The position numbers and the translations under genes are program-made. From assembly GCA_037142555.1 (NCBI GenBank), contig JBAXAJ010000005.1, positions 1 to 45,519 on the forward strand: a stretch of DNA of 45,519 nt. The letters are read 5' to 3'. This stretch comes from Candidatus Shapirobacteria bacterium. GTDB lineage: Bacteria > Patescibacteriota > Microgenomatia > UBA12405. The notes beneath the pieces were generated by a model. That model made no database searches, had not been told where the DNA came from, and saw nothing but the letters and a program-made list of their open reading frames with translations. Below are positions 8,041 through 29,244 of the stretch, one piece after another (positions within the stretch are counted from its first letter, which is position 1; each line of letters opens with the position of its first letter).

Positions 8041-8045
8041 AGCAA

Positions 8046-9293: not shown

Positions 9294-9337
9294 ATTAAAT
9301 TCTAACTCATTTTAGAGTTTTTTCAAAAGGAAGATTG

Positions 9338-10423
9338 TTAAATAAGTTTATTAATTAAATTTAATAGTTTTAAATTAGGTTGATAAGTGATTTTTGAAGA
9401 TGAAACTTTAAGTTTATTAAGCTTTAAAATGCCTTCTAATAGACTTTTTTTATTTAATTCTTCTTGCTGAATAATGATAGTTTTGTCAGGGAGTTGTTTT
9501 TTAACCCAAGAAGCATTAATTTTTTGTTCATCTTGTTGGCTTTTAAAAAGAGGGATTAAAATTGATGATTTTTTGAGAGCAACTATTTCTTGACTAGTGT
9601 TGGCTCCAGAACGGCTGATTAATATTTTAGAATTGGAAAAAATCCAACCAATGTCATTTGAATTGACATATTCAATTGGATAATAATTTTTATATTTTTG
9701 AGTTAATTTTTTAAATTTTGAATAATCAGTTTTGCCGGTTTGGTGGATAATAGTGAAATCTTTTAAATTTGAAAGAATTAATTTAATAGTGTCATTTATG
9801 GTTTTAGAACCTTGGTTACCAGCAGTTATATAGATGATAGGACTTTGATTTTTTTTGATTATTTTTTCAAAATATTTTGAACTTTGGTTGTAAATTTCTG
9901 AACGAAGAAGATTTCCAGTTATGACACTTTTTTCTGTTTGGTCTTTATTTTCAAAAGAAAGAGCGACTTTGTTGACAAATAAACTGTTTATTTTAGTAGT
10001 TAAACTGATGGTTGGAGTTTGTTCATGAGTGATAGATGGAATTCTTTTGAGCCAGCTGGAAATGATTACCGGGACTGAAACATAACCACCAAAAGAGGCA
10101 ACAATGTCTGGTTTGATTTTAGAAACTTGGTTATAAGCTTGAATTACACCTTTGATGGTTTGAGGAATGCCTTGAATGGTGTTTGGAAGCCATCTTCGGT
10201 CTAGTTTGCCACAAACAATTGAACTAAAATTTACTCCTAGTTTAGGAATTATCTCGGATTCAATTGAAGGAGTGGTGTCAACGCTGGAATTATATTGACG
10301 GCCAATATAATAAATTTGCCATTTTGTTTTAGAGTCTTTTTTGAGCTGAGATATTAATTCAACGGCGGGAGTGAGATGGGTGCCGGTGATGATTATTTTC
10401 TTTTGTAGATCCTTTGATTTCAC
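9338..10423 (-). CDS. murG: Lipid II synthase MurG (UDP-GlcNAc:lipid I GlcNAc transferase)
   Basis: GT28 layout: N-terminal ITGTHLTPAVEL in place of the G-loop, ITAGNQGSK, and SRSGANTSQEI. Follows ftsW, as in dcw clusters. Confidence 0.8.
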   Translation of the reverse strand: MKSKDLQKKIIITGTHLTPAVELISQLKKDSKTKWQIYYIGRQYNSSVDTTPSIESEIIPKLGVNFSSIVCGKLDRRWLPNTIQGIPQTIKGVIQAYNQVSKIKPDIVASFGGYVSVPVIISSWLKRIPSITHEQTPTISLTTKINSLFVNKVALSFENKDQTEKSVITGNLLRSEIYNQSSKYFEKIIKKNQSPIIYITAGNQGSKTINDTIKLILSNLKDFTIIHQTGKTDYSKFKKLTQKYKNYYPIEYVNSNDIGWIFSNSKILISRSGANTSQEIVALKKSSILIPLFKSQQDEQKINASWVKKQLPDKTIIIQQEELNKKSLLEGILKLNKLKVSSSKITYQPNLKLLNLINKLI

Positions 10424-11501
10424 CCTTTGAGTATATCAGTAAATGGTTCTGTTTTTCGATATTATGTACTAATCCGACAGCTGAAAGAAGAGTTAAAAGA
10501 GATGAGCCTCCATAGGAAATAAATGGCAGTGGAACTCCGGTCAAAGGAATGATGGCAACAATGGCAGAAATGTTGATTAAACTTTGATAGGCAATCCAAC
10601 AACCAACGCTGGCGACTAGTAGAGACTGGAAAGGATCGGGAATTATTTGACTTAATTTAATTAAATAAGTGATTAGATAAATATAAATTAATAAAATAAC
10701 CATAATTCCAAAAAAGCCCATTTCCTCCCCTATTACAGCGAGAATTGAATCGGTTGATATTTTAGGGAGATAACGATATTTTTGGTCTGAATTAGCAAAA
10801 CCTTTGCCGAATAAACCACCAGAAGACAGGGCTAAAATTATTTGATTACTATGATAGGAACTAGTGCTTTGTTCGGCTTGAGGGTTAAGAAGAGTTTTAA
10901 GTCTGGCGTAGCGATATGGAGAAAGGATTATTAGAAGTAAACTTAGAAATACAGCCACTCCACAAAGTTTGAATAAGGGCATGATTTCCCCACCAGAAAG
11001 ATAATAAATAGAAATAATTATGGCGGAAATGAGGATGGCAGTGCTTAGATTTGGTTCTAAAATAATTAAGGCAAAAGGAATACTTAGGTAGAAAATCAGG
11101 CTTTTTATGTTTCTTTTTTCTTTAATTGAAAATAAAAAAGAAAAATAAATAATTGAAGTGAACTTTAATATTTCTGATGGTTGAATACTAAAAATTCCTA
11201 AATTCAGCCAACGCCTGGCTCCAAGAGTTTCATTACTTAGGCCAGGAACTAAAACTAGGAGAAGAGCGATTAAAGTGGCGATGTAAATTGAAAATGAAAA
11301 TTTTTTAATAAAATCTAGTTTTATTTTTGAAGTTATGTAGAAACAAATTATGCTTAAGACAAGCCAAAGAGATTGTTTTTTAAGGAAGAAGAATTTGTCT
11401 CCCATGCTTGAACTGGCTTCAGTTAGTGAAGAGATTGAGATGAAAACTAGACCAATGGCAATTAAACTAAAGACTAAAAAAAGTAGGGGCGATTTTTTCA
11501 T
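10359..11501 (-). CDS. ftsW: SEDS-family protein, dcw-cluster copy (FtsW)
   Basis: SEDS boxes (IQPSEILKF, DSILAVIGEEMGFFG, IPLTGVPLPFISYGGSS). Start placed at MKKSPLLF (11501) rather than the track's 11549. The 3' end overlaps murG by 65 nt. Confidence 0.75.
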   Translation of the reverse strand: MKKSPLLFLVFSLIAIGLVFISISSLTEASSSMGDKFFFLKKQSLWLVLSIICFYITSKIKLDFIKKFSFSIYIATLIALLLVLVPGLSNETLGARRWLNLGIFSIQPSEILKFTSIIYFSFLFSIKEKRNIKSLIFYLSIPFALIILEPNLSTAILISAIIISIYYLSGGEIMPLFKLCGVAVFLSLLLIILSPYRYARLKTLLNPQAEQSTSSYHSNQIILALSSGGLFGKGFANSDQKYRYLPKISTDSILAVIGEEMGFFGIMVILLIYIYLITYLIKLSQIIPDPFQSLLVASVGCWIAYQSLINISAIVAIIPLTGVPLPFISYGGSSLLTLLSAVGLVHNIEKQNHLLIYSKGEIKGSTKENNHHRHPSHSRR

Positions 11502-12594
11502 AATCAATTTTAACAGGATTAGTGTCTTTAGAAAAAACAGAAAAATCATTAAACTTTTTGATAGTTAAATTATTTTCGTCTTTTTTGACAATTTCTGAAC
11601 CAATTAGGTTTTGATTATAAAAACGATTTTGTTCACTTTCTATATCAATTTGGTAATCAAGATTTAAAAATTCAGCCAAGTGGAAATAGAAGAGTGGAGT
11701 TAAATTTTGGTTTAATTCAATTTGAGTGTAAAAAGCAAAAGAAGCGGTTAGGCGAGGATTACATTCTAGAAGATAGACTTGATCTTGACTGACAAAAAAA
11801 TCGAGACCAAAAAAGCCTTTATAATTTAGTCTTTTTAAAATATCACCAAAATTATTAGTTATTGATTTAACTTTTTCTTGTAAATCTTCTGAAATATTGG
11901 CTGGCCATTGACGACCAACCGTGGCAAAAGGATTGTCAGTCAATTCGATTAAGCCAGTGTATTGGAGAGCAGGTGGACTTTGGATTAGACCACTTTTGGT
12001 TAAGCAACAATTGTTAAGCAGAGAAAATCCTTCTAAAAATGGAGAAAACTTGACGAGAGTGTTTGGAGCTATTTTAGATTCAATGTTTGGCCAATTATTA
12101 GAATCAAAAGTGCTGTTCCCTGCCCAACCAAAATGAGTTTGAACAACTAGATGATTATTGTAAAGTTGTTGATATTTAAGAAAATTTTCTTGGGTGAAAG
12201 AGTCTATTGATGATGGAATTGCTGGCAGATTAAATTGAGTGCAGATTTCACTAAATTTGATTTTATCTTCTAAAAATCTATTTAGAGAACCAGGATTATT
12301 GATGTTAACCCAAGAATTTTTTTTGCATAAAAAATCGATTTTGCTTGATGCCTTGAAAGAAATTATGGCTGGAGTGCGATTGTTTTCTTTAGATTTCTTA
12401 GAAATATAATCGATTACTTTTGGGTCAGATAGAAGTTTCCCACTGTTTTTTATTTTAACTGATGGATAATCAGAAAGATAAATTTTTTGGAAATTATTGA
12501 GTTGAGGGAGGTCAATGTCTAGAAGTTCATCGACAACTAAAAAATAGAAATCGAATGGACTTTGGTTTAGAAGATTTTCTAGATTAGAATTCAT
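11467..12594 (-). CDS. ATP-grasp superfamily ligase, specificity unknown, not a canonical Ddl
   Basis: LEDKIKFSEICTQFNLPAIP, then a central domain, then GFFGLDFFVSQDQVYLLECNPRLT (ATP-grasp Mg/ATP loop). The Ddl signatures I know (e.g. GEDG..Q) were not seen. Confidence 0.65.
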   Translation of the reverse strand: MNSNLENLLNQSPFDFYFLVVDELLDIDLPQLNNFQKIYLSDYPSVKIKNSGKLLSDPKVIDYISKKSKENNRTPAIISFKASSKIDFLCKKNSWVNINNPGSLNRFLEDKIKFSEICTQFNLPAIPSSIDSFTQENFLKYQQLYNNHLVVQTHFGWAGNSTFDSNNWPNIESKIAPNTLVKFSPFLEGFSLLNNCCLTKSGLIQSPPALQYTGLIELTDNPFATVGRQWPANISEDLQEKVKSITNNFGDILKRLNYKGFFGLDFFVSQDQVYLLECNPRLTASFAFYTQIELNQNLTPLFYFHLAEFLNLDYQIDIESEQNRFYNQNLIGSEIVKKDENNLTIKKFNDFSVFSKDTNPVKIDYEKIAPTFFSL

Positions 12595-13355
12595 CTTTTA
12601 GCTCCAGTTAATAAAATGACAGGATGTTGACCACAGTCGATATTATTTTTGATTGCTTTGTAATAACCAGCAAGAGCTAGGGCACTTTCGTTGGATGTTT
12701 GAATATTATTTTTTTCTAAAAATTTTTGAGAAGAAATTATGTCTTCATTTTGGATAATTAGTTCTGAACCATTAGAATCTTTGACAGCAGAAATGACTCT
12801 ATTTTTTAGAGGTTGAAATTTAACAGTTAAAGCATCGGTTAGGGTTGTGTCTTTTGGTTTGACTGAAAAAACTTTTACATTTGAAAGGGCTTGGGAAATG
12901 CCAAGAAGAGTGGTGCCACTGCCCACTGGAACGAAGATACTGGTGATTTGAGGACATTGTTCTAATAATTCTCTACCAATTGCTTGATAGCCGATTAGAG
13001 CGGTTGGGTCAGTTGATTGACGGAGATAATAAGCATTATTTTTTTTGGCAAATTTAAAAGCATCACTGATTGGTTTTAAAGAAAATTGGACTTGATCAAT
13101 TTGTGATTTGATTTCTTTTAGTTTTTGAGGATCAATTTTTGGTGATAAGAAAACAGTTAGATCAATGTTGTTTAGTTTGCAAAAATGAATAGCAGAGATG
13201 GCAGCATTGCCAGTGCTGGAAATTACTGCTTTGGTGAAACCCTCTTTAATTAAATTTTGGACTTGGACAGAAATGGCTCTATCTTTGGCAGATCCGGTTT
13301 CATTTAAGTCTTCTCTTTTTAGATATATATTGTCTAGTTTGATTAGTGGAGTCAT
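12591..13355 (-). CDS. Minimal fold-type II PLP-dependent enzyme (threonine synthase / cysteine synthase-like), 254 aa
   Basis: REDLNETGSAKDRA (PLP-lysine box), SSTGNAAIS, PVGSGTT and a C-terminal LLTGAKR, as in the Trp-synthase-beta superfamily. Shorter than typical members. Confidence 0.65.
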   Translation of the reverse strand: MTPLIKLDNIYLKREDLNETGSAKDRAISVQVQNLIKEGFTKAVISSTGNAAISAIHFCKLNNIDLTVFLSPKIDPQKLKEIKSQIDQVQFSLKPISDAFKFAKKNNAYYLRQSTDPTALIGYQAIGRELLEQCPQITSIFVPVGSGTTLLGISQALSNVKVFSVKPKDTTLTDALTVKFQPLKNRVISAVKDSNGSELIIQNEDIISSQKFLEKNNIQTSNESALALAGYYKAIKNNIDCGQHPVILLTGAKR

Positions 13356-13364
13356 TGTTATAAT
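13356..13364 (+). promoter_or_regulatory. Extended -10 element (TGtTATAAT) 7 nt upstream of the LysW-like ATG
   Basis: Exact TGnTATAAT at 13356-13364, ATG at 13372, no SD sequence. Spacing fits a leaderless transcript. Confidence 0.35.
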
Positions 13365-13371
13365 ATATTAT

Positions 13372-13539
13372 ATGACAGAAGACAATAAAAAAATACTTTG
13401 TCCTGATTGTGGGGCAGAAATAATTAAAACTGAAGAGATGATGGTTGGAGATATCGTTGAGTGTCAAGAATGTGGCACTGAGGTTGAAATTTTATCTCTC
13501 GAGCCATTGCAATATCGAGAATTAGTTGAGGAAAAGTAA
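13372..13539 (+). CDS. LysW/ArgW-like amino-group carrier protein (zinc ribbon, 55 aa)
   Basis: MTEDNKKILCPDCGAEIIKTEEMMVGDIVECQECGTEVEILSLEPLQYRELVEEK. It is collinear with Thermus LysW as I remember it (CPECGAEL...GELVVCEDCGAELEV..L.PLRLEP..EE). The track ORF 13198-13539 has an implausible N-terminal extension antisense to the PLP gene. Confidence 0.6.
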   Translation: MTEDNKKILCPDCGAEIIKTEEMMVGDIVECQECGTEVEILSLEPLQYRELVEEK

Positions 13540-14073
13540 TCTCCAGAAACCTTGATGGATGAAGTTTTTGTCGGTGAGATCGGCTTGACCATATTTGACT
13601 CCCCTGCCGGAGAGAGAGCTGTCAACATATTCTATGATGTTTCCATTTTTTTCGATAATAAATAAAACATGATGACCATTTTTTTGTCTGGCTAAATCAC
13701 CTGTTTTAATTTCAGTTGCTTTTATTTCTTTTGAGAGTGGTTTTGAAGTGAGCATGTTGGCTGAGTTTTTTCGAGGATTTAGATTAGTCCCAAGATAAAA
13801 ATTTAAAAGTTGGCAAACAAGACCAGAACAATCAATTCCAATATTATTTTTTTTCTGGAAATTATAGATTTCTTGGGGAGATAAAGATAATAACTTTATA
13901 TTTTTATCGTTGGCTATTTCAATAGTTTTTAGGGCTATTTCTTTGGCACTACCTTTGCCTCCTAGAATTTTTTCTTTGATTATTTTGCCGTTCTTGAGAA
14001 GATTTTTACTATATGGCAAACCAATATAGTGTTTAATTTCTTCTTTAAGTTCTATTAATTTAGTCCCAACCAT
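13522..14073 (-). CDS. NlpC/P60 family cysteine peptidase (gamma-D-glutamyl amidase type), no signal peptide
   Basis: GIDCSGLVCQL (catalytic Cys), IKTGDLA, GHHVLFII (His). Start taken at MVGTKL (14073). The N-terminus is hydrophilic. Confidence 0.7.
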   Translation of the reverse strand: MVGTKLIELKEEIKHYIGLPYSKNLLKNGKIIKEKILGGKGSAKEIALKTIEIANDKNIKLLSLSPQEIYNFQKKNNIGIDCSGLVCQLLNFYLGTNLNPRKNSANMLTSKPLSKEIKATEIKTGDLARQKNGHHVLFIIEKNGNIIEYVDSSLSGRGVKYGQADLTDKNFIHQGFWRLLFLN

Positions 14074-15089
14074 AGTCCAAATATAGCTAATATTATTCCA
14101 GCTAGCCAAGCTCGAGTTACAATTTTTGGTTCTTCCCAACCAATCTTTTGAAGAGTTAAGTGAAGTGGAGCAGCAGGAAAAACTTTTTTATTAAAATATT
14201 TTTTACTAATGATTTGAATAGCACTACTCATTCCTTCTATGATGAATGGAGCTCCAATAATTAATAGTGGAACTACTTTCCCAAGAAGCAGAGCGATGAC
14301 AGCAATGGTGGCTCCAAAAGATAAAGATCCAACATCACCTAGCCAAATTCTGGCTGGAAAAATGTTGAAGTATAAAAAGGCAATTAGGGAACCAATCCAA
14401 AGAGCCAAGAAGACTGAAATAGGAGTGTCGAGGGAACTGTTTGATATGAACCAAAAAGCAAAAAGACAAATCATTAGAAGACCACAAGAAAGGCCATCTA
14501 ATCCATCTGTGATGTTAAAAAAATTGGAAAAGCCAGTTATCAAGAGAACAGAAATTGGGATATAAAAAATGCCTAAATTGACTGCTCCTAGGAATGGAAT
14601 GTAAATAAAATCTATTCCTAAACTGAAGAAAATGTAGCTGGAAATTAGACCAGCAATGATTAATTGAAGAATTAGTTTATGAACCATTTTTAAGCCAAAA
14701 AAGCCAGTTGTTTTGAAATTAAAAAACTTATGGATATCATCATAAAGTCCAAGTAATCCAAAACTAATGAAGGTAAAAAAGATGACTATTAATTCTTTAT
14801 TTATTTGATAATTTGACGAAATGAAGATATTGGAAAATTTTAAAACTGGGAAAAGAATAGCAAAAAGAATGCAGACGGCTACTATAATTAATAGTCCTCC
14901 ACCAACTGGAGTTCCTGTTTTTTGTTCATGAAATTTATCAAAAATCGGAGTTCTTTTGTTTTGAAAATCTAGAGTTTTTTGTTTTTGACGTTGGAATTTT
15001 AGTTTATAGAGAAGATCAATGAAAGGAACGACGAGAATGCTTGTAAGTAAGAAAGAAACTAAAAGTAGACCTAAATATAAGTGAGTCAT
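14055..15089 (-). CDS. mraY: Phospho-MurNAc-pentapeptide translocase
   Basis: Polytopic protein. NITDGLDGL box, a C-terminal PLHLTLQKIGW region (canonical HHHFE box not obvious), GT4-polyprenyl-phosphate transferase layout. Confidence 0.88.
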   Translation of the reverse strand: MTHLYLGLLLVSFLLTSILVVPFIDLLYKLKFQRQKQKTLDFQNKRTPIFDKFHEQKTGTPVGGGLLIIVAVCILFAILFPVLKFSNIFISSNYQINKELIVIFFTFISFGLLGLYDDIHKFFNFKTTGFFGLKMVHKLILQLIIAGLISSYIFFSLGIDFIYIPFLGAVNLGIFYIPISVLLITGFSNFFNITDGLDGLSCGLLMICLFAFWFISNSSLDTPISVFLALWIGSLIAFLYFNIFPARIWLGDVGSLSFGATIAVIALLLGKVVPLLIIGAPFIIEGMSSAIQIISKKYFNKKVFPAAPLHLTLQKIGWEEPKIVTRAWLAGIILAIFGLWLGLN

Positions 15090-15092
15090 AAT

Positions 15093-16421
15093 TTATGTTT
15101 TTATATATTCTATATTAGCACCTAAAGAACAAAGACGTTCTGCGAGTTTTTCATAACCTCTTTCGATATATTCAACTCCATCGATAATGGATTTACCATT
15201 AGCGGTTAGAGCGGCTAGGGTTATTGAGGCGCCTGATCTTAAATCATTAATAGAGAAAGAAGCTGGTTTGAGTTTAGCTGGTCCATAGATTTTGACTCCA
15301 TGGAAATATTTTTCATCATCACTTTCTTTATTAAATTCATAAAAAGTTTCAGGATCCTCGACTTTTGGATTGAAGAAAGTAATTTTGGCTCCCATTTTTT
15401 TGAGATCATTAATATGTTGAAAACGATTTGGGTAAACTCTTTCGATGATTGAACTGCAACCAACTGTTTGAGTTAAAACTAAACTGAAAATTGCTTGCCA
15501 GTCGGTCATGAAGCCTGGTTCTGGTCCTGTTTCGATATTAATACTAGTTAGAGGCTTGACCCATTCGACACAAATTTCATCGTTACCAGTTTTGATTTCA
15601 GCACCCATTTTTTTGATGGTTTCTAAAAATGTTTTAACAATGTCTGGTTGTATTCTTAGAATACAAATAGAACCTTTGGTGGCAAGAGCGGCACAAGCAA
15701 AAGTTATTATTTCATTTCGATCACAAATTACACTGTGTTCTGTACCATTTAATTTAGAAACACCTTGAATGGTGATTCTTTTAGGATTATTAATGTCTCT
15801 TTGAATTTTGGCACCCATGCTGTTTAACATCAAAATGAGGTCATCAATTTCTGGTTCCATGGCAGCATTGTCAAGAATGGTTTCACCAATAGTTAGGGCT
15901 GCTGTCATTATAATAACTTCAGTTATGGTGTGGGTTGGTTTTGGGAAAGTGTAGTGAGTTGGTTTAATTCCAGTAGTTTTAAAAATTATGTTGCCATTTG
16001 TTTCTTCTGTAGTTATGTTCATTTGAGAAAAACAGTCAAAAAGTCGATCTAGAGGTCTGGCTCCAAGTTTGTCTCCACCAGGAATTGGGATTGTGGCATT
16101 GCCAGTTCTTAATAGAAGTGGAGCGGCAAACATAAAAGAAGCTCGAGATTTTTCACCAGTTCCACTTGGAACAATGGAGTTAGTTATTTTAGGAGTGGTT
16201 AATTCAAGACAATGATCACCTTTTTGTTTAACTTTACAACCAAGACTTTTAGCGATACTAGTGGTTATTTTTACGTCTGAAATTTGAGGAACGTTGTTCA
16301 AATTAACAGTTTCCTCAGTCAACATCGAGGCAATTATCTGTTTAAAACTGGCATTTTTTGCTCCACGAATGGAAACTTCACCTTTTAATGGTTTTCCTCC
16401 AGTGATTATATATCTAGACAT
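15093..16421 (-). CDS. murA: UDP-GlcNAc 1-carboxyvinyltransferase
   Basis: ITGGKPLKGEVSIRGAKNA start. The active-site loop reads IPGGDKLGARPLD, with Asp where E. coli has Cys115. Confidence 0.88.
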   Translation of the reverse strand: MSRYIITGGKPLKGEVSIRGAKNASFKQIIASMLTEETVNLNNVPQISDVKITTSIAKSLGCKVKQKGDHCLELTTPKITNSIVPSGTGEKSRASFMFAAPLLLRTGNATIPIPGGDKLGARPLDRLFDCFSQMNITTEETNGNIIFKTTGIKPTHYTFPKPTHTITEVIIMTAALTIGETILDNAAMEPEIDDLILMLNSMGAKIQRDINNPKRITIQGVSKLNGTEHSVICDRNEIITFACAALATKGSICILRIQPDIVKTFLETIKKMGAEIKTGNDEICVEWVKPLTSINIETGPEPGFMTDWQAIFSLVLTQTVGCSSIIERVYPNRFQHINDLKKMGAKITFFNPKVEDPETFYEFNKESDDEKYFHGVKIYGPAKLKPASFSINDLRSGASITLAALTANGKSIIDGVEYIERGYEKLAERLCSLGANIEYIKT

Positions 16422-17706
16422 ATTTGATTATTTTTTTAAAAGTTTTTTGACTGGATAGGCCACCAGAGCTCATATAAATAAGGATATCATTTCCAACTAA
16501 TGATTGTTGATAGTGTTTGATAATGTCTTGTTCAGTTGGTAAATATATCAATTTAGATCCAATTTCTTTTTTGAAATCAGAAGCACTGACACGATCTTCT
16601 TTGCTTATATCTTTGTTGAATTTAATTTGGCCTAGGACAATTTCAACAGCTCCATTGAAAGCATCTTTAAGCCCAATTAAGCTGTCTTTATATTGTAAAA
16701 ATGAAGCATGAGGGAGATAGAATACTTTAATTTTTCTTTTTGGATATTTTAATTTAAGAGCTTCTATGGTTGATTTAATTCTTGGAGCTGATTGAGCAAA
16801 ATCATCAAAAAATAAAATATTGTTGGAATCAGCGACTAGTTCGAGACGTCGTTTGACACCTTTAAAAGTGGCCACAGCTTTGTCAATTATTTTTTTATTT
16901 ATGCCTAATTCTTGGCATAAAGTGATGGCTGCTAATTTGTTTTCATAATCATAATTACCGTCTGTTTGAGTTTCGTAGGTAACTATTCTGGCTTTAGTTA
17001 ATTTTGAAAGTTCTTGAGTTTTAAAACCAAGTTTATTAATTACTAAAAGTCCATTTTTTGGTAGATTAGAAACTAATTTTTTGAAAGCATTAAAATTTTC
17101 TGATTCTGATTTATAAGAATCTTTGTGCTCCCATTGAGCGCTGGTTAAAATTAGATATTTTGCGGGATAATATAAAAATTTGGCTTGGGTGTCTAGACCA
17201 TTAATTGATTCATCGGCTTCGATTATTGACCAGTCGGATTTGGTTATGTCTAGAGAATCAAATTTATTTAAGCTTTGACCACCAAACATATAACTTGGGT
17301 TTAGATTAGCTTTTTTAAATATCCAAACAAGTAGACTAGTAATAGTTGTTTTCCCATATGATCCAGCAACTAAAATTGGATTGTTTTTACTGACATACTT
17401 GGCGATATATTCTGTGGCAGAAATATATTTTATTTTTAATTTTTTGATTTGTTCAAATTCAGTTCTGGTTTTTTCAAAAGAATTATAAGAAGATCCAATT
17501 ATAGCCAAATCAATATTTTTATTAATGTTGGTATTATTAATTTTAATTTTGGCGCTATTTAGAGTGGTGCTAATCGGTGGGTAAATTTTGTCTTGGTCAG
17601 AACCAGTTATTTGATGACCTTCTTTTTTAAGAGCAACAGCTAGTGCTGCTGTCATAGTCCCAGCTATTCCAATTATGTGTATTTTCATATTTATAAAGTA
17701 GTCCAA
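16414..17706 (-). CDS. mpl: Mur ligase of the Mpl type (UDP-MurNAc:L-Ala-gamma-D-Glu-diamino acid ligase-like); could also act as MurC
   Basis: Collinear with E. coli Mpl from memory: MKIHIIGIAGT...GHQITGSD, IYPPISTTL (Mpl VYPPMSTLL), GSYGKTT, IIEADE, KRRLELV, FFDDFAQS, and the C-terminal ILIYMSSGG (Mpl ILVMSNGGF). Confidence 0.65.
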   Translation of the reverse strand: MDYFINMKIHIIGIAGTMTAALAVALKKEGHQITGSDQDKIYPPISTTLNSAKIKINNTNINKNIDLAIIGSSYNSFEKTRTEFEQIKKLKIKYISATEYIAKYVSKNNPILVAGSYGKTTITSLLVWIFKKANLNPSYMFGGQSLNKFDSLDITKSDWSIIEADESINGLDTQAKFLYYPAKYLILTSAQWEHKDSYKSESENFNAFKKLVSNLPKNGLLVINKLGFKTQELSKLTKARIVTYETQTDGNYDYENKLAAITLCQELGINKKIIDKAVATFKGVKRRLELVADSNNILFFDDFAQSAPRIKSTIEALKLKYPKRKIKVFYLPHASFLQYKDSLIGLKDAFNGAVEIVLGQIKFNKDISKEDRVSASDFKKEIGSKLIYLPTEQDIIKHYQQSLVGNDILIYMSSGGLSSQKTFKKIIKYV

Positions 17707-18281
17707 CTATTATTATTGAAATATTCGAAACCTGGCATGTTTCTTTTGTAATAACCATTTTCTTTTGAAAAACGACCGAGGTATGAATATTTGAGATTTT
17801 CTGATTGACTGTCGATTATTACTTGAAGAACTAATCTGATTGGAAGATTCCCATGACTATATTCAGGATCGTAAAAGACATAAGCAACATGGCTAATTTC
17901 TGGAGAAAAATAACAAAGAGTATAGGCGATTATTTTATTTTCTTCATTTTTCCAAACATAAACATAATTAAAAATATGATTTGTAAAAATTGTTTTTACT
18001 GAACTTGTTGGGAAATCCCATTCTAATTTTTTAATCCAAGAACTTATTTCTTTTTGGATTTGAGGAGTGTATTCAAATTGGTTTAGAGCTATTTTTTGAA
18101 AAGTGAAATTTTCTGTTTTTCTTAAAATACGACGATTTTCTGAACTAATTTCAGAAAAAGACAGATTGGAACGACAACTTGATTCTTGGTAGAAAAGATC
18201 TTTATCATTTCTTTGAGGTAAAAAACCAAGTTGGTAATTTTGATCGATAGTGTTTGAATTTTTTATATTGAATTGAGACAT
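17691..18281 (-). CDS. Arginyl/leucyl-tRNA-protein transferase (ATE/Bpt)-like protein, reduced form (196 aa)
   Basis: LGFLPQR...FSEISSENRRILRK resembles the ATE_N end. SHVAYVFYDPEYSHGNLPIRLVL...YSYLGRFSKENGYYKRNMPGFEYF..NSW resembles ATE_C (SA.Y.F.DP....LG...YLGY......M.YK..F.P.E). The N-terminal Cys cluster is absent. Confidence 0.55.
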   Translation of the reverse strand: MSQFNIKNSNTIDQNYQLGFLPQRNDKDLFYQESSCRSNLSFSEISSENRRILRKTENFTFQKIALNQFEYTPQIQKEISSWIKKLEWDFPTSSVKTIFTNHIFNYVYVWKNEENKIIAYTLCYFSPEISHVAYVFYDPEYSHGNLPIRLVLQVIIDSQSENLKYSYLGRFSKENGYYKRNMPGFEYFNNNSWTTL

Positions 18282-19510
18282 TAGTTTATGTTTTTATATC
18301 TAAAAGCGGTTCTGTAGGCTTCTGCTTCTGACCAAGGGTATTCGGTTTTTCCATGGAGAATTGATGTTTCATGACCTTTCCCACAAGCGATGATAGTGTC
18401 CCCTGTTTCAGCTAGTTTTATAGCTAAATTGAAGGCATCTTGTCGGTTAGGAATGTCAAAATATTTAAACTTTGGTCTTTTAACAATTCCACTGATTATT
18501 TGTTGATTAATATCTTCAACTTTTTCATCTCGAGTGTCATCAGCGGTGATTATAGCGATGTTGGCATTTTCAGAAACAACCTTTCCCATTATTGGTCTTT
18601 TAGATTTATCTCTGCCGCCAGTGGCACCAAAAATAATAATGATTTTACCAGTGGTGTTTTTCTTTAAAGATAATAGAGTGCTTTCAAGTGCAGCTGGAGT
18701 GTGAGCAAAATCAATTAAAGTTTTAAATTTAAAATCATTTGGAAATTCTTCAGTTCGGCCTTTAATTTTTGGAAAAACTTTGACAGTTTGGATTAATATA
18801 TTTGGATCAATATTGAGTTTGTCGATGATAGCAAAAGTGAGAAGAATATTATAAATTTGATAATAATAATTACTGTCAGTTATAATTTTGAGTTTTTTGA
18901 CTTTAAATTCAATATTTTTTTTGTCTATTTTTATTTTAGTGGCGTGGTAGTTTGATTTTGAATCGATTCCATAGCTGATGACTGTTTTATTAATTTCTTT
19001 TTTAATTTTATTAAATGAATCATCGTCTTTATTTAAAATTACAGTTTTAGCGGCTTTGAAAAGTTTAGTTTTAGCACTGATGTAGGTGTCTAGATCACGG
19101 AAATAATCTAGATGTTCGTGAGAAATATTGGTCAATCCGGCTATTTCGAATTTACAACCAAAATATCTAAATTGATCAATAGCATGTGCGGTAACTTCTA
19201 GAACAACATGAGTCACTTTTTCTTTGACCATTTGACGTAATAGTTTTTGGATTACGATTGGGTCCGGAGAAGTCATATGGAGTTGGGTGTTATATTCGCT
19301 ATCACCTATCTTGGCTCCAATAGTAGAAATCAGACCAGCTTTGATGCCTGAATTAGTTAAAACATGATGAATTAAATTGCAGGTTGTAGTTTTACCGTCA
19401 GTTCCAGTGACACCAATTAAAATTAGTTTTCTTGCTGGAAAACCATATATTAAACTCAATAAAAAATTTTTTGGTAAATGCCAAAGGATATTTTTCAGTT
19501 TTTGTATCAT
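18281..19510 (-). CDS. murE: MurE-like Mur ligase with a short N-terminus (409 aa)
   Basis: GVTGTDGKTTT P-loop at residues ~34-44, HEHLDYF, DFAHTPAALESTL, GATGGRDKSKRPIMG, ADDTRDE (in place of DNPR), GKGHE. Confidence 0.75.
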   Translation of the reverse strand: MIQKLKNILWHLPKNFLLSLIYGFPARKLILIGVTGTDGKTTTCNLIHHVLTNSGIKAGLISTIGAKIGDSEYNTQLHMTSPDPIVIQKLLRQMVKEKVTHVVLEVTAHAIDQFRYFGCKFEIAGLTNISHEHLDYFRDLDTYISAKTKLFKAAKTVILNKDDDSFNKIKKEINKTVISYGIDSKSNYHATKIKIDKKNIEFKVKKLKIITDSNYYYQIYNILLTFAIIDKLNIDPNILIQTVKVFPKIKGRTEEFPNDFKFKTLIDFAHTPAALESTLLSLKKNTTGKIIIIFGATGGRDKSKRPIMGKVVSENANIAIITADDTRDEKVEDINQQIISGIVKRPKFKYFDIPNRQDAFNLAIKLAETGDTIIACGKGHETSILHGKTEYPWSEAEAYRTAFRYKNIN

Positions 19511-19521
19511 TTTGTATTTTA

Positions 19522-21147
19522 TTATAACAAATTATTGATTTTTGAGGCCAATTCGAACCAAATTGGAGCAGCAGTGCTTGAACCCCAAGGCGAGCTTTTT
19601 GGGTTATTGATGGTGACTATCATAGTGAATTTAGGGTTTTCACAAGGAGAAAAGCCGATATATGAGGCAATAGTTGATGAATTAGTGTAATCCCCTTTTA
19701 TGGCAACTTGAGCAGTTCCGCTTTTGGCACAAACTTCTAGATCTTTTGGTTTCATTTTTGCAACAACTCCATTTTCAACAGCATATTTTAAGATGGCTTT
19801 CATTTGACTAGTTGTTTCGGGTTTAAAAACTTTAGTTTCAGGTTTAAATTTGGCTTTTATAATTTTATTATTTTCATCAAAATGATCGACAACATAAGGT
19901 TTAACTAAAACTCCGTTGTTGGCAATAGTGTTGAAAGCTTGAAGCATATTGATTTGAGTCATAGCTATCCCCTGTCCAAAAGAAGCGGTGGCTAGATCAA
20001 TTTCTGGCCATTCTTCTTTTAGAAGTGGTTTAACTTCACCTTGAAGATCAATTCCGGTTTTTTGATCTAAACCAATTTTGTGATAGTAATCTAGAAAGTT
20101 TTTTTCTCCTAATTTCCCAATGATATAACTCATACCGATATTGTCAGAGTTTTTAATAATATCTTGAAGTGATGAATTTGGGTGTAATTCTGAATCCCAA
20201 TTAGTGATGGTGTATTTACCAATTGCTCTTTGAGAACCACAGCCAGTGCAGACAAAATTAGTATCAATGGATTTTTTATCTAGAGCCATAGTCACTATTA
20301 AAGGTTTAAAAATTGAGCCTGGTTCGAAAAGATCGGAAATAGCTGGGTTTTTGAAGGCGCTGGGAGTGGCGGAGCTGGTGGCAGTCAAAGTTGACATTGC
20401 TAATAGAGCACCAGTTTTTGAATTGATGATGGTGATTGAGCCGGAATCAGATGTGTATCTGTCTAGGCCTTGTTGGAGTAATCTTTCTGATAGTACTTGG
20501 ATATTTCGGTTAATAGTGGTGTGTAGATTTCGGCCATCAACGGCATCAGAAGTCCAACTTTTTTTAGTTAGAATTGTTTTTCCAGTGCCATCTTTGGTGC
20601 CCAGAGAAAAGCCAGTTTTACCTTTTAATTGTTTGTCATAATAGGCTTCTAAACCCCCGACGCTATTATTACCTAAAATATCTTTAGCTAGATTATTTTC
20701 GGGATATAAACGTTTTTCAATATTTTGAAAATCGAGATTTAAATTTTTTAGATTTTCTTTTTGATTTTCAGTGACTTCTATTGGGAACGTGATCCATTTT
20801 CTATTAGAGTCAGCAATGAAGCTATTTATTAAATTTTGATTGTCTTGTTTGAAATTAGGGATGTTTTGGTCTATCTTTTGGAAAAGTTCATCTAATTTAT
20901 TATCTTTTATGTTGGGTTTATAGACAGATAATTGATAATAATTTCGATTAAGAACGATTGGATAGCCATCTGAAGTGAAAATTTTGCCTCTTTTTGGGTT
21001 AATTGTTTCTAATTTATAAGTTTGGTTTAGAGCTTTTTCTTTAAGTTCTGGTTCTTTAATTACTTGCCAATAAAAAAGTCTGACAGTTATTAGGGCAAAA
21101 GGTATTAGTAGTGCTATTAATAATAGTTTTGATCTTTTTGGTGACAT
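19522..21147 (-). CDS. ftsI: Class B penicillin-binding protein / transpeptidase
   Basis: N-terminal TM segment. SIFK (SxxK), SDN (SxN), KSGT (KTG-type). Sits between ftsL-like and murE. Confidence 0.85.
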   Translation of the reverse strand: MSPKRSKLLLIALLIPFALITVRLFYWQVIKEPELKEKALNQTYKLETINPKRGKIFTSDGYPIVLNRNYYQLSVYKPNIKDNKLDELFQKIDQNIPNFKQDNQNLINSFIADSNRKWITFPIEVTENQKENLKNLNLDFQNIEKRLYPENNLAKDILGNNSVGGLEAYYDKQLKGKTGFSLGTKDGTGKTILTKKSWTSDAVDGRNLHTTINRNIQVLSERLLQQGLDRYTSDSGSITIINSKTGALLAMSTLTATSSATPSAFKNPAISDLFEPGSIFKPLIVTMALDKKSIDTNFVCTGCGSQRAIGKYTITNWDSELHPNSSLQDIIKNSDNIGMSYIIGKLGEKNFLDYYHKIGLDQKTGIDLQGEVKPLLKEEWPEIDLATASFGQGIAMTQINMLQAFNTIANNGVLVKPYVVDHFDENNKIIKAKFKPETKVFKPETTSQMKAILKYAVENGVVAKMKPKDLEVCAKSGTAQVAIKGDYTNSSTIASYIGFSPCENPKFTMIVTINNPKSSPWGSSTAAPIWFELASKINNLL

Positions 21148-21353
21148 TATTGATTTAATGGATTTGAAATTGAAGTAAGTTCAGCTAGTTTTTTTTCTAG
21201 AACTTGTTGTTGTTTTTCTAAAATATCTAATTGGGAGAGATTTTTATTAAGTAAATTATTCTGATTAATAATTTCGCTTGAATAATAAAAAGAAAAAGAG
21301 ATTTGGAGAACTATAGTTACAGCTAAAATAATTATAAAAATTTTATTAGACAT
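21147..21353 (-). CDS. FtsL-like small bitopic coiled-coil protein
   Basis: 68 aa with one TM helix and a Leu-rich heptad stretch. Lies between rsmH and ftsI. Assignment is by position and architecture only. Confidence 0.5.
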   Translation of the reverse strand: MSNKIFIIILAVTIVLQISFSFYYSSEIINQNNLLNKNLSQLDILEKQQQVLEKKLAELTSISNPLNQ

Positions 21354-21362
21354 TAAACTATT

Positions 21363-22247
21363 CTATATGATTCTATATGATCTGAGTGTGGCTGAACGAG
21401 ATAATGGGTTTTTTGATACTTCTTTATGATTTGCTTTGACTGATTTTGATTTATTTGTGATTAGATTGTTATCAAAACTATTTTTAATAAATTGTTTAAC
21501 AATTCTGTCTTCTCCAGAATGAAAAGTTATTATGACAACTCTGCCATTTGATTTAATTGAAGTTAGAGTTTGAGCTAGAAGATTTCTTAAATTTTCAAAT
21601 TCTTCATTGACTAATATTCTTAAGCTCATAAAAATTTTAGTGCTAGGGTCAGTGTTGGTTCTGATGTTGCGTTGTTTATAGTAATCTCTGATGATGTTGG
21701 CTAATCTTTCACCTGATTTTATTGGTGATTTTTGGCGTTCTGTGATTATCCTTAAAATTAGAGGTTTGCTGTAGACTTCTTGACCATATTTAGTGAAAAC
21801 TTTATACAAATCTTCGAAAGAAGCAGTGTTTATGACCATTTCAGCAGTCACTTCTTGATTTTCAGGATCAAGACGCATGTCTAGAGATGAAGTGTCGTTG
21901 AAAGAAAATCCCCTATTTTGTGACTTTTGTTGATTTTGACTTAAACCAAGGTCAACAATGATTCCAGAAATTTCTTTTTTAATTTGGTTTTTAACAATAT
22001 CTTCTAATTTATTAAAGTTTGAATGAATTGGAAAAAAGTTTTTTCCCAGACCTTCTTTTTTAATCCTTTCTTGGGTTATTTTCAAATTATTTGGGTCTTG
22101 GTCAATTCCATAAACAATGCCACCTTTTTTAAGAATTTCGAGAGTGTGTCCACCGTTTCCAAGAGTAGCGTCGATATAAACTTCACCACTTTGAACATCG
22201 AGAAGATCGATCGTTTCTTGAGATAAAACTGGTAAATGATATTCCAT
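21363..22247 (-). CDS. rsmH: 16S rRNA (cytosine1402-N4)-methyltransferase
   Basis: YIDATLGNGGH, DLGLSQNQ, SGEDRIVK and a C-terminal NPLSRSATLR motif. Confidence 0.9.
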   Translation of the reverse strand: MEYHLPVLSQETIDLLDVQSGEVYIDATLGNGGHTLEILKKGGIVYGIDQDPNNLKITQERIKKEGLGKNFFPIHSNFNKLEDIVKNQIKKEISGIIVDLGLSQNQQKSQNRGFSFNDTSSLDMRLDPENQEVTAEMVINTASFEDLYKVFTKYGQEVYSKPLILRIITERQKSPIKSGERLANIIRDYYKQRNIRTNTDPSTKIFMSLRILVNEEFENLRNLLAQTLTSIKSNGRVVIITFHSGEDRIVKQFIKNSFDNNLITNKSKSVKANHKEVSKNPLSRSATLRSYRII

Positions 22248-22961
22248 CTATTGGATTAAGTAATCACCAACTAGAGAATTAGTGTTTTCTTTAGTGACAG
22301 TGTTTGGAGTGATGGAATTGATTTTTCCAGCTCCAGTGCCGTTAGAAAAAACGGAATAAACTGACTTTAAATTTTTAATTAAAACGAAGAAATCACTTTT
22401 GGTAGTGGTAGTGGCGCTAATAGCTAAATTTTCAGTTGGAAGAGCTAGACCCTTAATTTTAATGTCAGCTGAAGAAGTTAGAGCAAAAGAACTATTAAAG
22501 CTTACTTGACCATCTTTAGTGTTGAAATTTAAAGTTAAAGTTCCCCCAGTTATACCCTCATCATAGGCATATTTACAACCATTAGTGCAGCTTTCAGTTC
22601 CTAGAAGAAGATCTTTTTCGACAGTTTTAGTTACGTTTTTGACAGTGTCACCTACTCCTTTTTCCATTTCTAGTTTAGTAGTTTTATCGACAGCGGTGTA
22701 GATTAGTTCATATTCAATGCTGGTAACAGATGATGGGATATTTTCTATCTTTAGTTTTAACATGTGACCATCAGTTCGAGGAGTTAGACTGATATATGGT
22801 TTTTCTGTTTCGCTAAATTCAATTGTTTTAGTTGAAACATTATTATTTATTGGACTATTATTGACGGTCTTTGTTTTTTTATTAAATAAAGCAAAGATAA
22901 CTACAATAATTAATATTATTGCAATGACAGCGATGTAAATGATGTTTTTATTTGTTTTCAT
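22248..22961 (-). CDS. Hypothetical bitopic membrane protein with a ~200-aa extracytoplasmic beta-rich domain
   Basis: One N-terminal TM helix. Ser/Thr/Asn-rich domain with no recognised motif. Tightly coupled to glyQS (14-nt overlap) and rsmH (adjacent). Confidence 0.5.
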   Translation of the reverse strand: MKTNKNIIYIAVIAIILIIVVIFALFNKKTKTVNNSPINNNVSTKTIEFSETEKPYISLTPRTDGHMLKLKIENIPSSVTSIEYELIYTAVDKTTKLEMEKGVGDTVKNVTKTVEKDLLLGTESCTNGCKYAYDEGITGGTLTLNFNTKDGQVSFNSSFALTSSADIKIKGLALPTENLAISATTTTKSDFFVLIKNLKSVYSVFSNGTGAGKINSITPNTVTKENTNSLVGDYLIQ

Positions 22962-24285
22962 AACTACTATTTAACTGTTTTTCGAGCCAACTGTCAACCT
23001 CATCAGTTTTTACTCTGACTTGTTTCATAGTGTCTCGGTCTCGAATACTGACTGTGTCATCTTCTAAAGTTTGATAATCAACGACTAAACACCAAGGGGT
23101 TCCAATTTCATCTTGGCGGCGGTATTTTTTACCAATATTACTAGAATCATCCCAATCTACTGAATATTTTTGAGATAGAGTTTGATAAATTTCTTCTGAT
23201 TTTTTAATTAATTCTGGTTTATTAGCAGCTAAAGGAAGGACTGCTATTTTGTAAGCAGCGACTTGTGGTTTAACTTTCAAAAAAGTTCTGATTTCTCCAG
23301 ATTCTAATTTTTCTTCTCGATAGGCGTCTAAAAGCATAAAGAAGAAACTACGATCAACACCACCGGAAGTTTCAGTAATCCAAGGAGTGTATTTTTCATT
23401 TGTGACTGGATCGAGATATTTTAGATCTTGACCACTGAATTTAGCATGTTGAGTTAAATCATAATCCCCTCGCCAGTGGATTCCTTCCATTTCTGACCAA
23501 CCCCAAGGAGCGTTGTATTCAATATCAAAAGCTTTTTTAGCATAGAAAGCTAATTCATCTTTGTCATGTTCTCTAAATCTTAGATTTTCTGGATTATTAA
23601 AAAGTGATTGATACCAATTCATACGGTTACCTTTCCAATATTCATACCATTTGTCCATTTCATCAGGGTGAACAAAAAATTGAATGTCCCATTGTTCAAA
23701 TTCACGAGTTCGATATAAAAAGTTTTTAGGAGTTATTTCATTTCTGAAAGCTTTTCCAATTTGAGCAATACCAAAAGGAATTTTGACTCGGCTAGAATCA
23801 ACGATGTTTTTAAAATCAAGATAAATAGTTTGGCAAGCTTCACCTCTTAAATAAGCATGTTGTTTTTCACCCTCAATGACACCGATTTCAGTTTCAAAAA
23901 GAATATTATATTTTCGACCTTCAGTGAATTCACCAGCACATTCAGGACATTTTGAAGGGTCATCTAATAGATCAGGACGAAATCTTTTATGACATTTTTT
24001 ACATTCAACCATGATGTCGGCAAAGTTTTTGACGTGACCAGAAGCTTCCCAAACACGAGGATGAGTGATGATAGATCCATCAATTCCGACAACATCACGT
24101 CTTTTTAGGACATTGTCAGACCACCAAATATTTTTCCAATTTAGTTTCATTTGAGATCCGACTGGGCCGTAATCATAGAAACCTTGGACACCACCGTAGA
24201 TTTCTGAGTTTTGAAATATTATTCCTCGTCTCTTACAAAGACTGACGATTTTACTAACAAGTTCGTTTTGGTTTTTTTCTGCCAT
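22948..24285 (-). CDS. glyQS: Glycyl-tRNA synthetase (class II, homodimeric type)
   Basis: IVSLCKRRGIIFQNSEIYGG.QGFYDYGPVG, FRNEITP, a zinc-like CKKC...CPEC insertion and a C-terminal anticodon-binding domain. Confidence 0.9.
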   Translation of the reverse strand: MAEKNQNELVSKIVSLCKRRGIIFQNSEIYGGVQGFYDYGPVGSQMKLNWKNIWWSDNVLKRRDVVGIDGSIITHPRVWEASGHVKNFADIMVECKKCHKRFRPDLLDDPSKCPECAGEFTEGRKYNILFETEIGVIEGEKQHAYLRGEACQTIYLDFKNIVDSSRVKIPFGIAQIGKAFRNEITPKNFLYRTREFEQWDIQFFVHPDEMDKWYEYWKGNRMNWYQSLFNNPENLRFREHDKDELAFYAKKAFDIEYNAPWGWSEMEGIHWRGDYDLTQHAKFSGQDLKYLDPVTNEKYTPWITETSGGVDRSFFFMLLDAYREEKLESGEIRTFLKVKPQVAAYKIAVLPLAANKPELIKKSEEIYQTLSQKYSVDWDDSSNIGKKYRRQDEIGTPWCLVVDYQTLEDDTVSIRDRDTMKQVRVKTDEVDSWLEKQLNSSYENK

Positions 24286-24674: not shown

Positions 24675-24700
24675 TTCTCTTAGTTTAAGAGAATTAATTT
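24675..24700 (+). terminator. Hairpin between convergent genes; candidate terminator for the cupin gene
   Basis: ttctctta-gtt-taagagaa (8-bp stem) followed by ttaattt. Confidence 0.45.
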
Positions 24701-28590: not shown

Positions 28591-29244
28591 TTACCAGCGT
28601 GACAACATCGCCATTGGGGTTTTAATAATTATTTTAATTTCTTGAATAATAGATCTATTGTGAATGTAATGACAATCTAACCTAGCTCTTTGTTCGAAAG
28701 TTAATTCATTACGACCTGAGGTTTGCCAGAGCCCAGTTATTCCTGGTTTGACTGATCTTATTTGTTTGATTTGATCTTTGGTTTGAGGATATTTTTCTTC
28801 ATATTCTTGTAGTTCTTCTTCTCTGTAGGCTCTTGGCCCGATTAAACTCATGTCTCCTTTAAGAACATTAATTAATTGAGGGAATTCATCTATAGTTAAA
28901 GACCTGATTATTTTTCCAACAGGAGTTATTCTTGGATCTTCTGACATTGGTAGTTTCCAACCAGCATCTTTATATTTTTTCCATAATTCTGGATAGTTAT
29001 CTTTTAATCTTTTATCATTATCCCCTATGTACATTGATCTGAATTTGTACATCAAAAATTGTTTACTATTTTTACCGACTCTTTTTTGTCTAAATAAAAC
29101 TGGTCCAGGAGATGATTGTTTAATGATAATAGCGGTTACGATCATTATTGGAAGGAAAAGAATTAAGAGGAATAGAGATCCAAATAAATCGATGCTTCTT
29201 TTAAATAAATCGAATGGTATGTTTCTTATTTCTTTGTTTGTCAT
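28591..29244 (-). CDS. Small monotopic phosphoglycosyl transferase (bacterial sugar transferase, PglC/WbaP C-terminal type)
   Basis: KRSIDLFGSLFLLILFLPIMIV, PGPVLFRQKRVGKN, MYKFRSM, DEFPQLINVLKGDMSLIGPR. Confidence 0.8.
   Translation of the reverse strand: MTNKEIRNIPFDLFKRSIDLFGSLFLLILFLPIMIVTAIIIKQSSPGPVLFRQKRVGKNSKQFLMYKFRSMYIGDNDKRLKDNYPELWKKYKDAGWKLPMSEDPRITPVGKIIRSLTIDEFPQLINVLKGDMSLIGPRAYREEELQEYEEKYPQTKDQIKQIRSVKPGITGLWQTSGRNELTFEQRARLDCHYIHNRSIIQEIKIIIKTPMAMLSRW

Follow-up and report, generated by a model that had tools for sequence, protein, structure and literature searches.

The window analyzed here is a 45,519-nt stretch of DNA (contig JBAXAJ010000005.1, assembly GCA_037142555.1) from a Candidatus Shapirobacteria bacterium, a member of the candidate phyla radiation (CPR; Patescibacteria). 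On its minus strand lies a division and cell wall (dcw) cluster in which a 196 a.a open reading frame (ORF; 17691..18281), here named ATEL together with its family, is located between murE and the gene of a MurC/Mpl-type ligase. We put at about even chances the reading that ATEL is a minimal GNAT-fold aminoacyl-tRNA transferase of the ATE/Bpt lineage, recruited from protein tagging to peptidoglycan-precursor synthesis. The broader assignment, that of a peptidoglycan-linked aminoacyl transferase, is likely, and the narrowest one, in which the acceptor is the side chain at position 3 of the stem peptide, is tentative. The features on which the argument turns are as follows.

17691..18281, minus strand: ATEL, 196 a.a ATE/Bpt-like putative aminoacyl-tRNA transferase (ORF, Pfam, AlphaFold2, Foldseek, and homologues)
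18117..18146, minus strand: SSENRRILRK, residues 46–55, basic helix (S47, E48, R50, and R51 invariant)
17760..18011, minus strand: GNAT-like core, residues 91–174 (Pfam ATE_C positions 22–105 of 122)
17745..17750, minus strand: Y178-K179, putative counterpart of the catalytic dyad (K179 invariant, Y178 nearly so)
16414..17688, minus strand: MurC/Mpl-type UDP-N-acetylmuramic acid (UDP-MurNAc) ligase, 424 a.a, directly downstream of ATEL (alternative start TTG 17706)

Given that an ORF of 196 a.a has 569 homologues (65–79% identity among the 120 matches listed) in a genome with 32% GC at the window, we regard ATEL as a real, selected gene. The stop codon of murE (TAA) and the start codon of ATEL (ATG) share a single base (TAATG on the minus strand), as reported in a preliminary description of this DNA, and in 59 species-level relatives ATEL begins −23 to +10 nt from the stop of murE. 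The same description gave a 16-nt overlap between ATEL and the ligase gene, which holds only if the ligase is translated from TTG 17706. As translation from ATG 17688 gives an N-terminus (MKIHIIGIAG...) that lines up with residue 1 of the two models, MurC and Mpl, and with that of the Mpl whose structure is solved, this ATG is the likelier start, and it leaves a 2-nt spacer after the ATEL stop codon. The two genes are tightly packed whichever start applies, our scan of the window found no terminator-like sites between ATEL and the adjoining cluster genes, and the tight gene-to-gene coupling first described around ATEL is correct.

The C-terminal half of ATEL was originally likened to ATE_C, and it indeed matches this Pfam family (PF04377) with 29.2 bits (gathering cut-off 25, E 1.5e-6), as do 14 of 17 diverse members of the ATEL family. 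No match was found to ATE_N (PF04376; none for ATEL at E ≤ 1 and none for the 17 members at E ≤ 0.01), to FemAB (PF02388; ATEL and all 17 members), or, for ATEL itself, to the Pfam family Leu_Phe_trans. The stretch FSEISSENRRILRK, formerly taken as the end of ATE_N, fared unevenly, given that the Pfam ATE_N model is silent and the Bpt models align from residue 43–45, weakly; the stretch would instead correspond to the basic, tRNA-binding α3 helix of ATE1 (PMC9351520). The metal ligands of klAte1 are C23, C26, C95, and C96 (PMC9351520). ATEL contains only C36 and C123, without a CxxC or CC motif, and no cysteine column is conserved in the wider family. The initial call of an ATE/Bpt-like protein that has lost the N-terminal cysteine cluster is therefore upheld in both of its parts.

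Bpt, via ATE_C, is the closest sequence family, and the two are comparable in size (196–267 a.a in ATEL, about 240 a.a in Bpt) and have the YK dyad in common. However, the NCBIfam models for Bpt and arginyltransferase align only weakly with residues 43–196 of ATEL (15–25 bits, E about 3e-5), an order of magnitude under their equivalog cut-offs (170–358 bits), and a member of the family from Verrucomicrobiota, at 46 bits, also falls below these cut-offs; ATEL further differs from Bpt in having neither ATE_N nor any of the four cysteines. A profile of the ATEL family retrieved 224 clusters at E ≤ 0.001 among 1.84 billion representative proteins. In light of scores this far under the Bpt cut-offs, we read ATEL as a small family separate from canonical Bpt, with the caveat that the membership of Bpt among the 224 clusters was not checked. 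Most of the distant members are 215–270 a.a long; they are extended at the N-terminus by a segment reading MKLFFSEFKPNYSKYxFPYQV and, in many cases, by a tail at the C-terminus. Members of the family are named arginyl-tRNA-protein transferase by JGI and hypothetical protein by NCBI.

An AlphaFold2 model of ATEL, with 17 homologues as input (pLDDT 80.7, pTM 0.79), found its best Foldseek matches in the PDB among human and yeast ATE1 (7TIF, 7WG1, 8E3S, and 8TZV; E 5e-9, query-normalized TM 0.66–0.75). A second tier comprised the aminoacyl-phosphatidylglycerol synthase domain of MprF (DUF2156; TM 0.49–0.57) and the tRNA-dependent peptide synthase Sba18, and no Fem structure was present in the top 50. 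ATEL shares with ATE1 the basic helix and the Tyr-Lys dyad, but spans only around one third of it, without the Zn/Fe-S cysteine cluster and the C-terminal extension. At the level of sequence, a profile of the close family retrieved nothing relevant from the PDB, and a profile of the wide family gave marginal matches to GNAT acetyltransferases (E 0.011) and ATE1 (E 0.04).

The residues G19, R37, S47, E48, R50, R51, Y167, G169, K179, and W193 are invariant across the ATEL family. Y178-K179 aligns with the KYK motif of human ATE1 by comparison of hidden Markov models (HMM; marginal E 0.04) and with Tyr303-Lys304 of klAte1, a catalytic pair equivalent to Phe304-Lys305 of FemX and one in which the K304A mutant is dead (PMC9351520). 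SSENRRILRK forms a helix in the AlphaFold2 model (residues 47–54) at the position of α3 and is likely the counterpart of the tRNA-binding α3 helix of ATE1, which in klAte1 (K112–K123) is basic and binds the 3′ end of the tRNA (PMC9351520). Judged by these motifs, ATEL looks active and is probably tRNA-dependent.

The donor pocket can be compared in the same way. In klAte1, arginine is held by S255, S273, E277, and Y289, to which A168, A185, Q189, and L201 are equivalent in Bpt (PMC9351520); when mapped through the HMM alignment with human ATE1, which is marginal (E 0.04), the corresponding ATEL residues are V132, L150, V154, and S166, suggestive of an uncharged pocket like that of Bpt. At the position of the arginine-binding Glu277 of ATE1, all members of the ATEL family have V, T, A, or S, which makes arginine an unlikely donor and the JGI name "arginyltransferase" almost certainly wrong in this respect. 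Presumably, the GWRRSG motif of ATE1 corresponds to GFLPQR in ATEL; on this putative correspondence, the motif of the pocket for acidic N-termini, as found in Bpt, would be altered and the Arg would not be in the same place, but R24 and R37, near this stretch, are conserved. In klAte1, it is R80 that recognizes the acidic N-terminal residue (PMC9351520).

Two alternatives to tRNA-dependent transfer onto a peptidoglycan precursor arise from these comparisons. ATEL could be an acyl-CoA-dependent GNAT N-acyltransferase that modifies a peptidoglycan precursor or an amino acid (an acetyl or succinyl group added to a diamino acid would be an example), given that the wide-family profile matches GNAT acetyltransferases as well as ATE1 and that 3 of the 17 family members also match the generic GNAT family Acetyltransf_1. 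We consider this improbable, as ATE_C is the dominant family match and the sole one above threshold, the top-ranked Foldseek matches (ATE1, MprF, and Sba18) are all tRNA-dependent, and little or no variation is seen in the YK dyad and the basic helix that typify tRNA-dependent transferases, while the CoA-binding loop (R/Q-x-x-G-x-G/A) is absent from the window protein, which reads HGNLPIR.

The second alternative, an MprF-like aminoacylation of some other envelope molecule (a hydroxyl or amine of a lipid or polymer) or a non-catalytic partnership with the Mur ligase, strikes us as highly improbable. It draws on the tRNA-dependent GNAT fold of the MprF synthase domains and their place in the second Foldseek tier, on the C-terminal membrane segment of a distant member (P0234), and on a protein in the window with an LPG_synthase_TM domain only (42963..43904). 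However, the TM values for MprF lie below those for ATE1, the window protein has no membrane segment, and ATEL differs from MprF in lacking a sequence-family match and a membrane domain, in its gene context, and in that the MprF acceptor is a lipid hydroxyl; the conserved neighbors of ATEL are cytoplasmic precursor enzymes and not lipid enzymes. A purely structural role is further disfavored by the invariance, or near-invariance, of the catalytic residues.

The genomic context ties ATEL to peptidoglycan synthesis. A scan of Shapirobacteria with one genome per GTDB species yielded 60 loci (ATEL 45–74% identical to that of the window; neighborhoods of ±6–10 kb seen around each homologue), and the order murE-ATEL-ligase is present in every one whose flanks reach the neighboring genes. 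The wider order is likewise kept: aminoacyl-tRNA synthetase-orf237-mraW-ftsI-murE-ATEL-ligase-(murA)-mraY-NlpC-PALP-ATP-grasp. The adjacency of murE and ATEL, which the preliminary description proposed to look for in relatives, is thus a constant of the lineage, and the variable context that would have spoken for an N-degron enzyme was not seen in any informative locus.

Divergent CPR lineages, in which ATEL is 27–39% identical, are independent support for this link: ATEL is placed next to one or more of MurE, MraY, and the MurC/Mpl ligase, and at least three arrangements occur. These include murE-ATEL-ligase-murB-murA-murF-mraY (loci L065–L078), murE-ATEL-ligase-murA-murF...mraY-LysW-like-PALP-ATP-grasp-ftsW-murG (L150), ATEL-ligase-PgeF-murB-murA on a Dojkabacteria contig (L145), ATP-grasp-x-mraY-ATEL-ligase...LysW-like-PALP (L147 and L153), and murE-ATEL without the ligase (L081 and L095). 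In one lineage, ATEL is fused to the MurC/Mpl-type ligase through a Pro/Ser-rich linker (P0122, 645 a.a). Another composite protein (P0182; L152 9001..11430, 809 a.a) joins an ATEL domain to a phosphoenolpyruvate (PEP)-synthase/PigC-like PPDK_N and PEP-utilizer module; it comes from one contig only, on which a MurE-like ligase is encoded 4.4 kb upstream and no other peptidoglycan gene is nearby. On the Dojkabacteria contig, the gene that follows the ATEL-adjacent ligase (3355..4179) belongs to the Cu-oxidase_4 family (PgeF/YfiH family), which we take to be a peptidoglycan editing factor family.

A second phylum carries ATEL in a different setting. A GC-rich clade (54–60% GC), named Verrucomicrobiota by NCBI, has no dcw genes near ATEL; instead, of 59 informative loci, 53 have an alanine racemase gene on the same strand upstream of ATEL, and in 45 this gene directly adjoins ATEL, in some cases with overlapping reading frames. 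The racemase is bona fide (TIGR00492, 372 bits). With two phyla and several gene arrangements in agreement, ATEL appears tied to cytoplasmic peptidoglycan-precursor metabolism.

These results also bear on the possibility that ATEL is an ordinary Bpt-type N-degron enzyme that tags N-terminal Asp or Glu, its placement in the dcw cluster being incidental. Bpt and ATE1 are the sole named relatives of ATEL, and the JGI name points the same way. We nevertheless give this very little credence, in view of the Bpt scores far under the equivalog cut-offs, the lack of both an ATE_N match and the cysteine cluster, and a family profile of limited reach that we take as distinct from canonical Bpt (subject to the caveat above). 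The context of ATEL (murE, the MurC/Mpl ligase, mraY, and the alanine racemase gene alr) is not one of N-degron genes, and it is conserved in two phyla, with one Mur ligase fusion; ClpS and ClpA families were not listed among the called genes of those loci with precomputed Pfam hits, which covers local neighborhoods. The conserved order, the divergent CPR flanks, the fusion, and the coupling to alanine racemase together make a peptidoglycan role much likelier than N-degron tagging.

The mechanism that we propose for a peptidoglycan-linked ATEL would run as follows. The basic helix SSENRRILRK would hold the acceptor end of the aminoacyl-tRNA, and the uncharged pocket (V132, L150, V154, and S166) would accommodate an aminoacyl group that is small or neutral (such as Ala, Gly, Ser, or Leu) rather than Arg, which makes a neutral amino acid the probable donor. 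A free amine of the stem peptide would then attack the ester, with K179, together with Y178, stabilizing the tetrahedral intermediate. Aminoacyl-tRNA acylates amines only, and the sole free amine of the canonical precursor is the side chain of the diamino acid at position 3; the leading candidate for the acceptor is then this MurE-installed side-chain amine, on UDP-MurNAc-peptide or lipid II, in which case an enzyme outside the Fem family would be making a Fem-like branch. As murE, which directly precedes ATEL, is responsible for this amine, such a branch is the simplest reading. Of the Fem-like role suggested at the outset, the part that concerns peptidoglycan precursors is supported by the conserved context, and the specific branch mechanism is what we infer from it.

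FemX, FemABX, and MurM are the closest functional analogues of ATEL, in that they share its superfold, its pathway neighborhood, and the chemistry proposed here (an aromatic residue paired with Lys, a basic helix for the tRNA, and an amine as acceptor). ATEL differs from the FemABX enzymes in lacking PF02388, in having one GNAT-like core within 196 a.a in place of the double GNAT of FemXWv, and in its distribution, with ATEL found in CPR and Verrucomicrobiota and FemABX in Firmicutes and Actinobacteria. It would stem from the ATE/Bpt branch and thus have a separate origin.

Several points weigh against this reading. The mapping of ATEL residues onto ATE1 comes from marginal alignments (E 0.04–0.15) anchored on conserved motifs, and the matches to Acetyltransf_1 leave room for an acyl-CoA donor. 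The 60 Shapirobacteria loci form one collinear lineage and so represent deep conservation rather than 60 independent events. The DNA of the P0122 fusion is the same in three assemblies (0–1 mismatch), for which reason we count it as one lineage or population and rejected the assemblies as independent evidence. The locus of P0234 lies outside any peptidoglycan cluster, and linkage to alanine racemase is not specific to a branch at position 3. Other amine acceptors, such as a free peptide passed to the Mpl-like ligase, are equally allowed. The MurE of the window scores as DAP (diaminopimelate)-type (350 bits) over Lys-type (203 bits), and tRNA-dependent (Fem) branches are rarer on DAP-type peptidoglycan. 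Finally, staphylococcal cell-wall tRNAGly genes are a precedent for a dedicated tRNA, but the window contains no tRNA gene near ATEL and the 60 loci no consistent one, and a dedicated tRNA gene was dropped as a hint to the donor.

Our literature searches on a peptidoglycan tRNA transferase in CPR, on ClpS in Patescibacteria, and on the loss of murD or murF in Microgenomates returned nothing relevant, which suggests that a role in peptidoglycan-precursor synthesis has not yet been described for an enzyme of the ATE/Bpt type. To our knowledge, FemABX-type enzymes, themselves targets linked to beta-lactam resistance, are the only ones established to use tRNA in peptidoglycan chemistry, and experimental data on the cell walls of CPR/Patescibacteria are not known to us. 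Should ATEL act on wall precursors, the ATE/Bpt branch would have come to the job of Fem through an independent recruitment, and the known uses of charged tRNA outside translation would become wider. Such a role would also open a first concrete way into how CPR/Patescibacteria build their walls, made experimentally approachable in that the hypothesis is directly testable with recombinant protein. The JGI name is probably wrong on both donor and acceptor. Among enzymes that act on small molecules, a 2026 review on tRNA-dependent enzymes of natural-product biosynthesis lists the GNAT-fold aminoacyl-tRNA transferases VlmA, DhpH, DhpK, PacB, and Orf11, all of the Fem-type double-GNAT form (PMC12945691).

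The remaining genes of the cluster and its upstream flank are listed below.

22948..24285, minus strand: GlyRS (NF003211, 568 bits)
22248..22961, minus strand: orf237, 237 a.a, without a Pfam or NCBIfam match
21363..22247, minus strand: mraW
21147..21353, minus strand: ftsL-like
19522..21147, minus strand: ftsI
18281..19510, minus strand: murE, 409 a.a, DAP-type by HMM (TIGR01085, 342 bits, cut-off 257)
15093..16421, minus strand: murA
14055..15089, minus strand: mraY
13522..14139, minus strand: NlpC/P60 peptidase
13372..13539, plus strand: 55 a.a Zn-ribbon ORF, LysW-like counterpart, antisense between the NlpC/P60 and pyridoxal phosphate (PLP)-enzyme genes
12591..13355, minus strand: PLP enzyme (PALP)
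11467..12594, minus strand: ATP-grasp protein (ATP-grasp_3 ligase)
10359..11549, minus strand: ftsW
9338..10423, minus strand: murG
8046..9293, minus strand: ftsA
6874..8040, minus strand: ftsZ

Within this dcw cluster (6874..22247, mraW to ftsZ), no murD, murF, murB, ddl, or mraZ is present; related lineages retain murB and murF in the cluster, and L153 has a MurD-like ligase nearby. The MurE of the window is short at its N-terminus: residues 19–402 align to positions 75–470 of TIGR01085, the P-loop lies near residue ~34, and Pfam recognizes only Mur_ligase_M and Mur_ligase_C, the UDP-binding domain 1 of ~75 residues being absent. The MurF-type ligases of related CPR lineages also lack domain 1, with alignments that begin at model position 64–65, and the N-terminal nucleotide-binding domain is kept only in the MurC/Mpl-type ligase among these Mur ligases. 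The domain-1-less entries in relatives are:

L070, 12455..13666: ligase without domain 1
L150, 13467..14735: ligase without domain 1

The ligase adjacent to ATEL was first labeled Mpl-type, a label that is defensible and not settled. Compared with solved structures, it is nearest to 3HN7 (138.7 bits, E 2.4e-39; best MurC 104 bits), the murein peptide ligase Mpl of Psychrobacter (PMC3060825). It holds the Mpl-like N-domain motif GSD..IYPPIS (of the GSD..YPP(M/I)S type) and EADES..D..AKF, and such Mpl-like motifs recur in the ATEL-adjacent ligases of several lineages; the loop aligned to the Mpl-specific motif (S/T)AFFDKRSK (PMC3060825) reads INGLDTQAKF. NCBIfam, on the other hand, ranks murC (217 bits) above mpl (164 bits), both under cut-off, and the ATEL-adjacent ligase of a relative scores 250 and 246 bits, respectively, again under cut-off.

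The nature of this ligase matters for a further alternative, a salvage or "reverse-order" assembly in which ATEL would extend a peptide at its N-terminus, adding L-Ala or Gly from aminoacyl-tRNA to the α-amine of a free peptide that begins with D-Glu (γ-D-Glu-DAP, with or without D-Ala-D-Ala), after which the Mpl-like ligase would join the product to UDP-MurNAc. ATE/Bpt enzymes ancestrally acylate the α-amine of N-terminal Glu or Asp (PMC9351520), and the greater nearness of the ligase to Mpl 3HN7 than to any MurC, its Mpl-like motifs, and the ATEL-ligase fusion are in keeping with such a sequence of steps, as are the missing UDP-binding domains of MurE and the MurF-type ligases, the absence of murD from its usual slot between mraY and ftsW, and the presence of a cytoplasmic-looking NlpC/P60 peptidase in the cluster. 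We still regard it as unlikely: a MurD-like ligase lies beside the module in the ATEL-bearing L153, Verrucomicrobiota also carry ATEL, with nothing to suggest that MurD is missing from them (no test for it was made), NCBIfam places the ligase slightly nearer to MurC than to Mpl, and the Arg of the acidic-residue pocket of ATE1 (GWRRSG in the presumed mapping) would not be in place in GFLPQR. As a function of the whole family, a "MurD bypass" is weakened by the same MurD-like ligase in L153 and the presence of ATEL in Verrucomicrobiota.

A bolder version of this extension seems to us quite unlikely, namely that CPR carriers build or salvage the stem peptide in part away from the nucleotide and in part by means of tRNA, which would be a new route of precursor assembly. 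The domain-1-less MurE and MurF-type ligases would act on free peptides, ATEL, retaining an ancestral ATE/Bpt preference for N-terminal Glu, would place L-Ala or Gly from aminoacyl-tRNA on the D-Glu end, the Mpl-like ligase, whether fused or adjacent, would join the whole peptide to UDP-MurNAc, and the LysW-like/PLP/ATP-grasp trio would supply an unusual amino acid.

In the window, this trio (LysW-like, PALP, and ATP-grasp_3) occupies the interval between mraY and ftsW, the usual slot of murD, and it co-occurs with ATEL in several CPR lineages. Its Zn-ribbon ORF reads MTEDNKKILCPDCG...ECQECG...LVEEK, and counterparts annotated as LysW-like (PF21344) occur in L147, L150, and L153. One possibility is that the trio acts as an amino-group-carrier-protein module, making an unusual amino acid of the stem peptide or attaching it. 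The NlpC/P60 ORF, read from its TTG, overlaps mraY by 85 nt; its start is more likely Met23, from which no obvious signal peptide is seen. Should it be a cytoplasmic, YkfC-like γ-D-Glu-diamino-acid peptidase, it would hint at muropeptide recycling.

GlyRS is encoded 4.7 kb upstream of ATEL, two genes above mraW on the same strand, an arrangement kept in CPR relatives, and could supply Gly-tRNA to ATEL. As recO-glyS adjacency is common across bacteria, we discounted GlyRS as a clue to the donor and do not count it as evidence. The 237 a.a ORF between GlyRS and mraW keeps its place in every CPR relative examined, where it lies upstream of mraW or mraZ; like it, a 448 a.a ORF (24694..26040, minus strand) has no Pfam or NCBIfam match.

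Farther along the window, a 14-kb block on the minus strand (28591..42919) encodes glycosyltransferases, a Wzy-like polymerase, a sugar transferase, and a nucleotidyl transferase, a content by which it is probably a surface polysaccharide locus. It adjoins the LPG_synthase_TM gene, located on the plus strand, the product of which corresponds to the flippase-like domain of MprF without the synthase domain.

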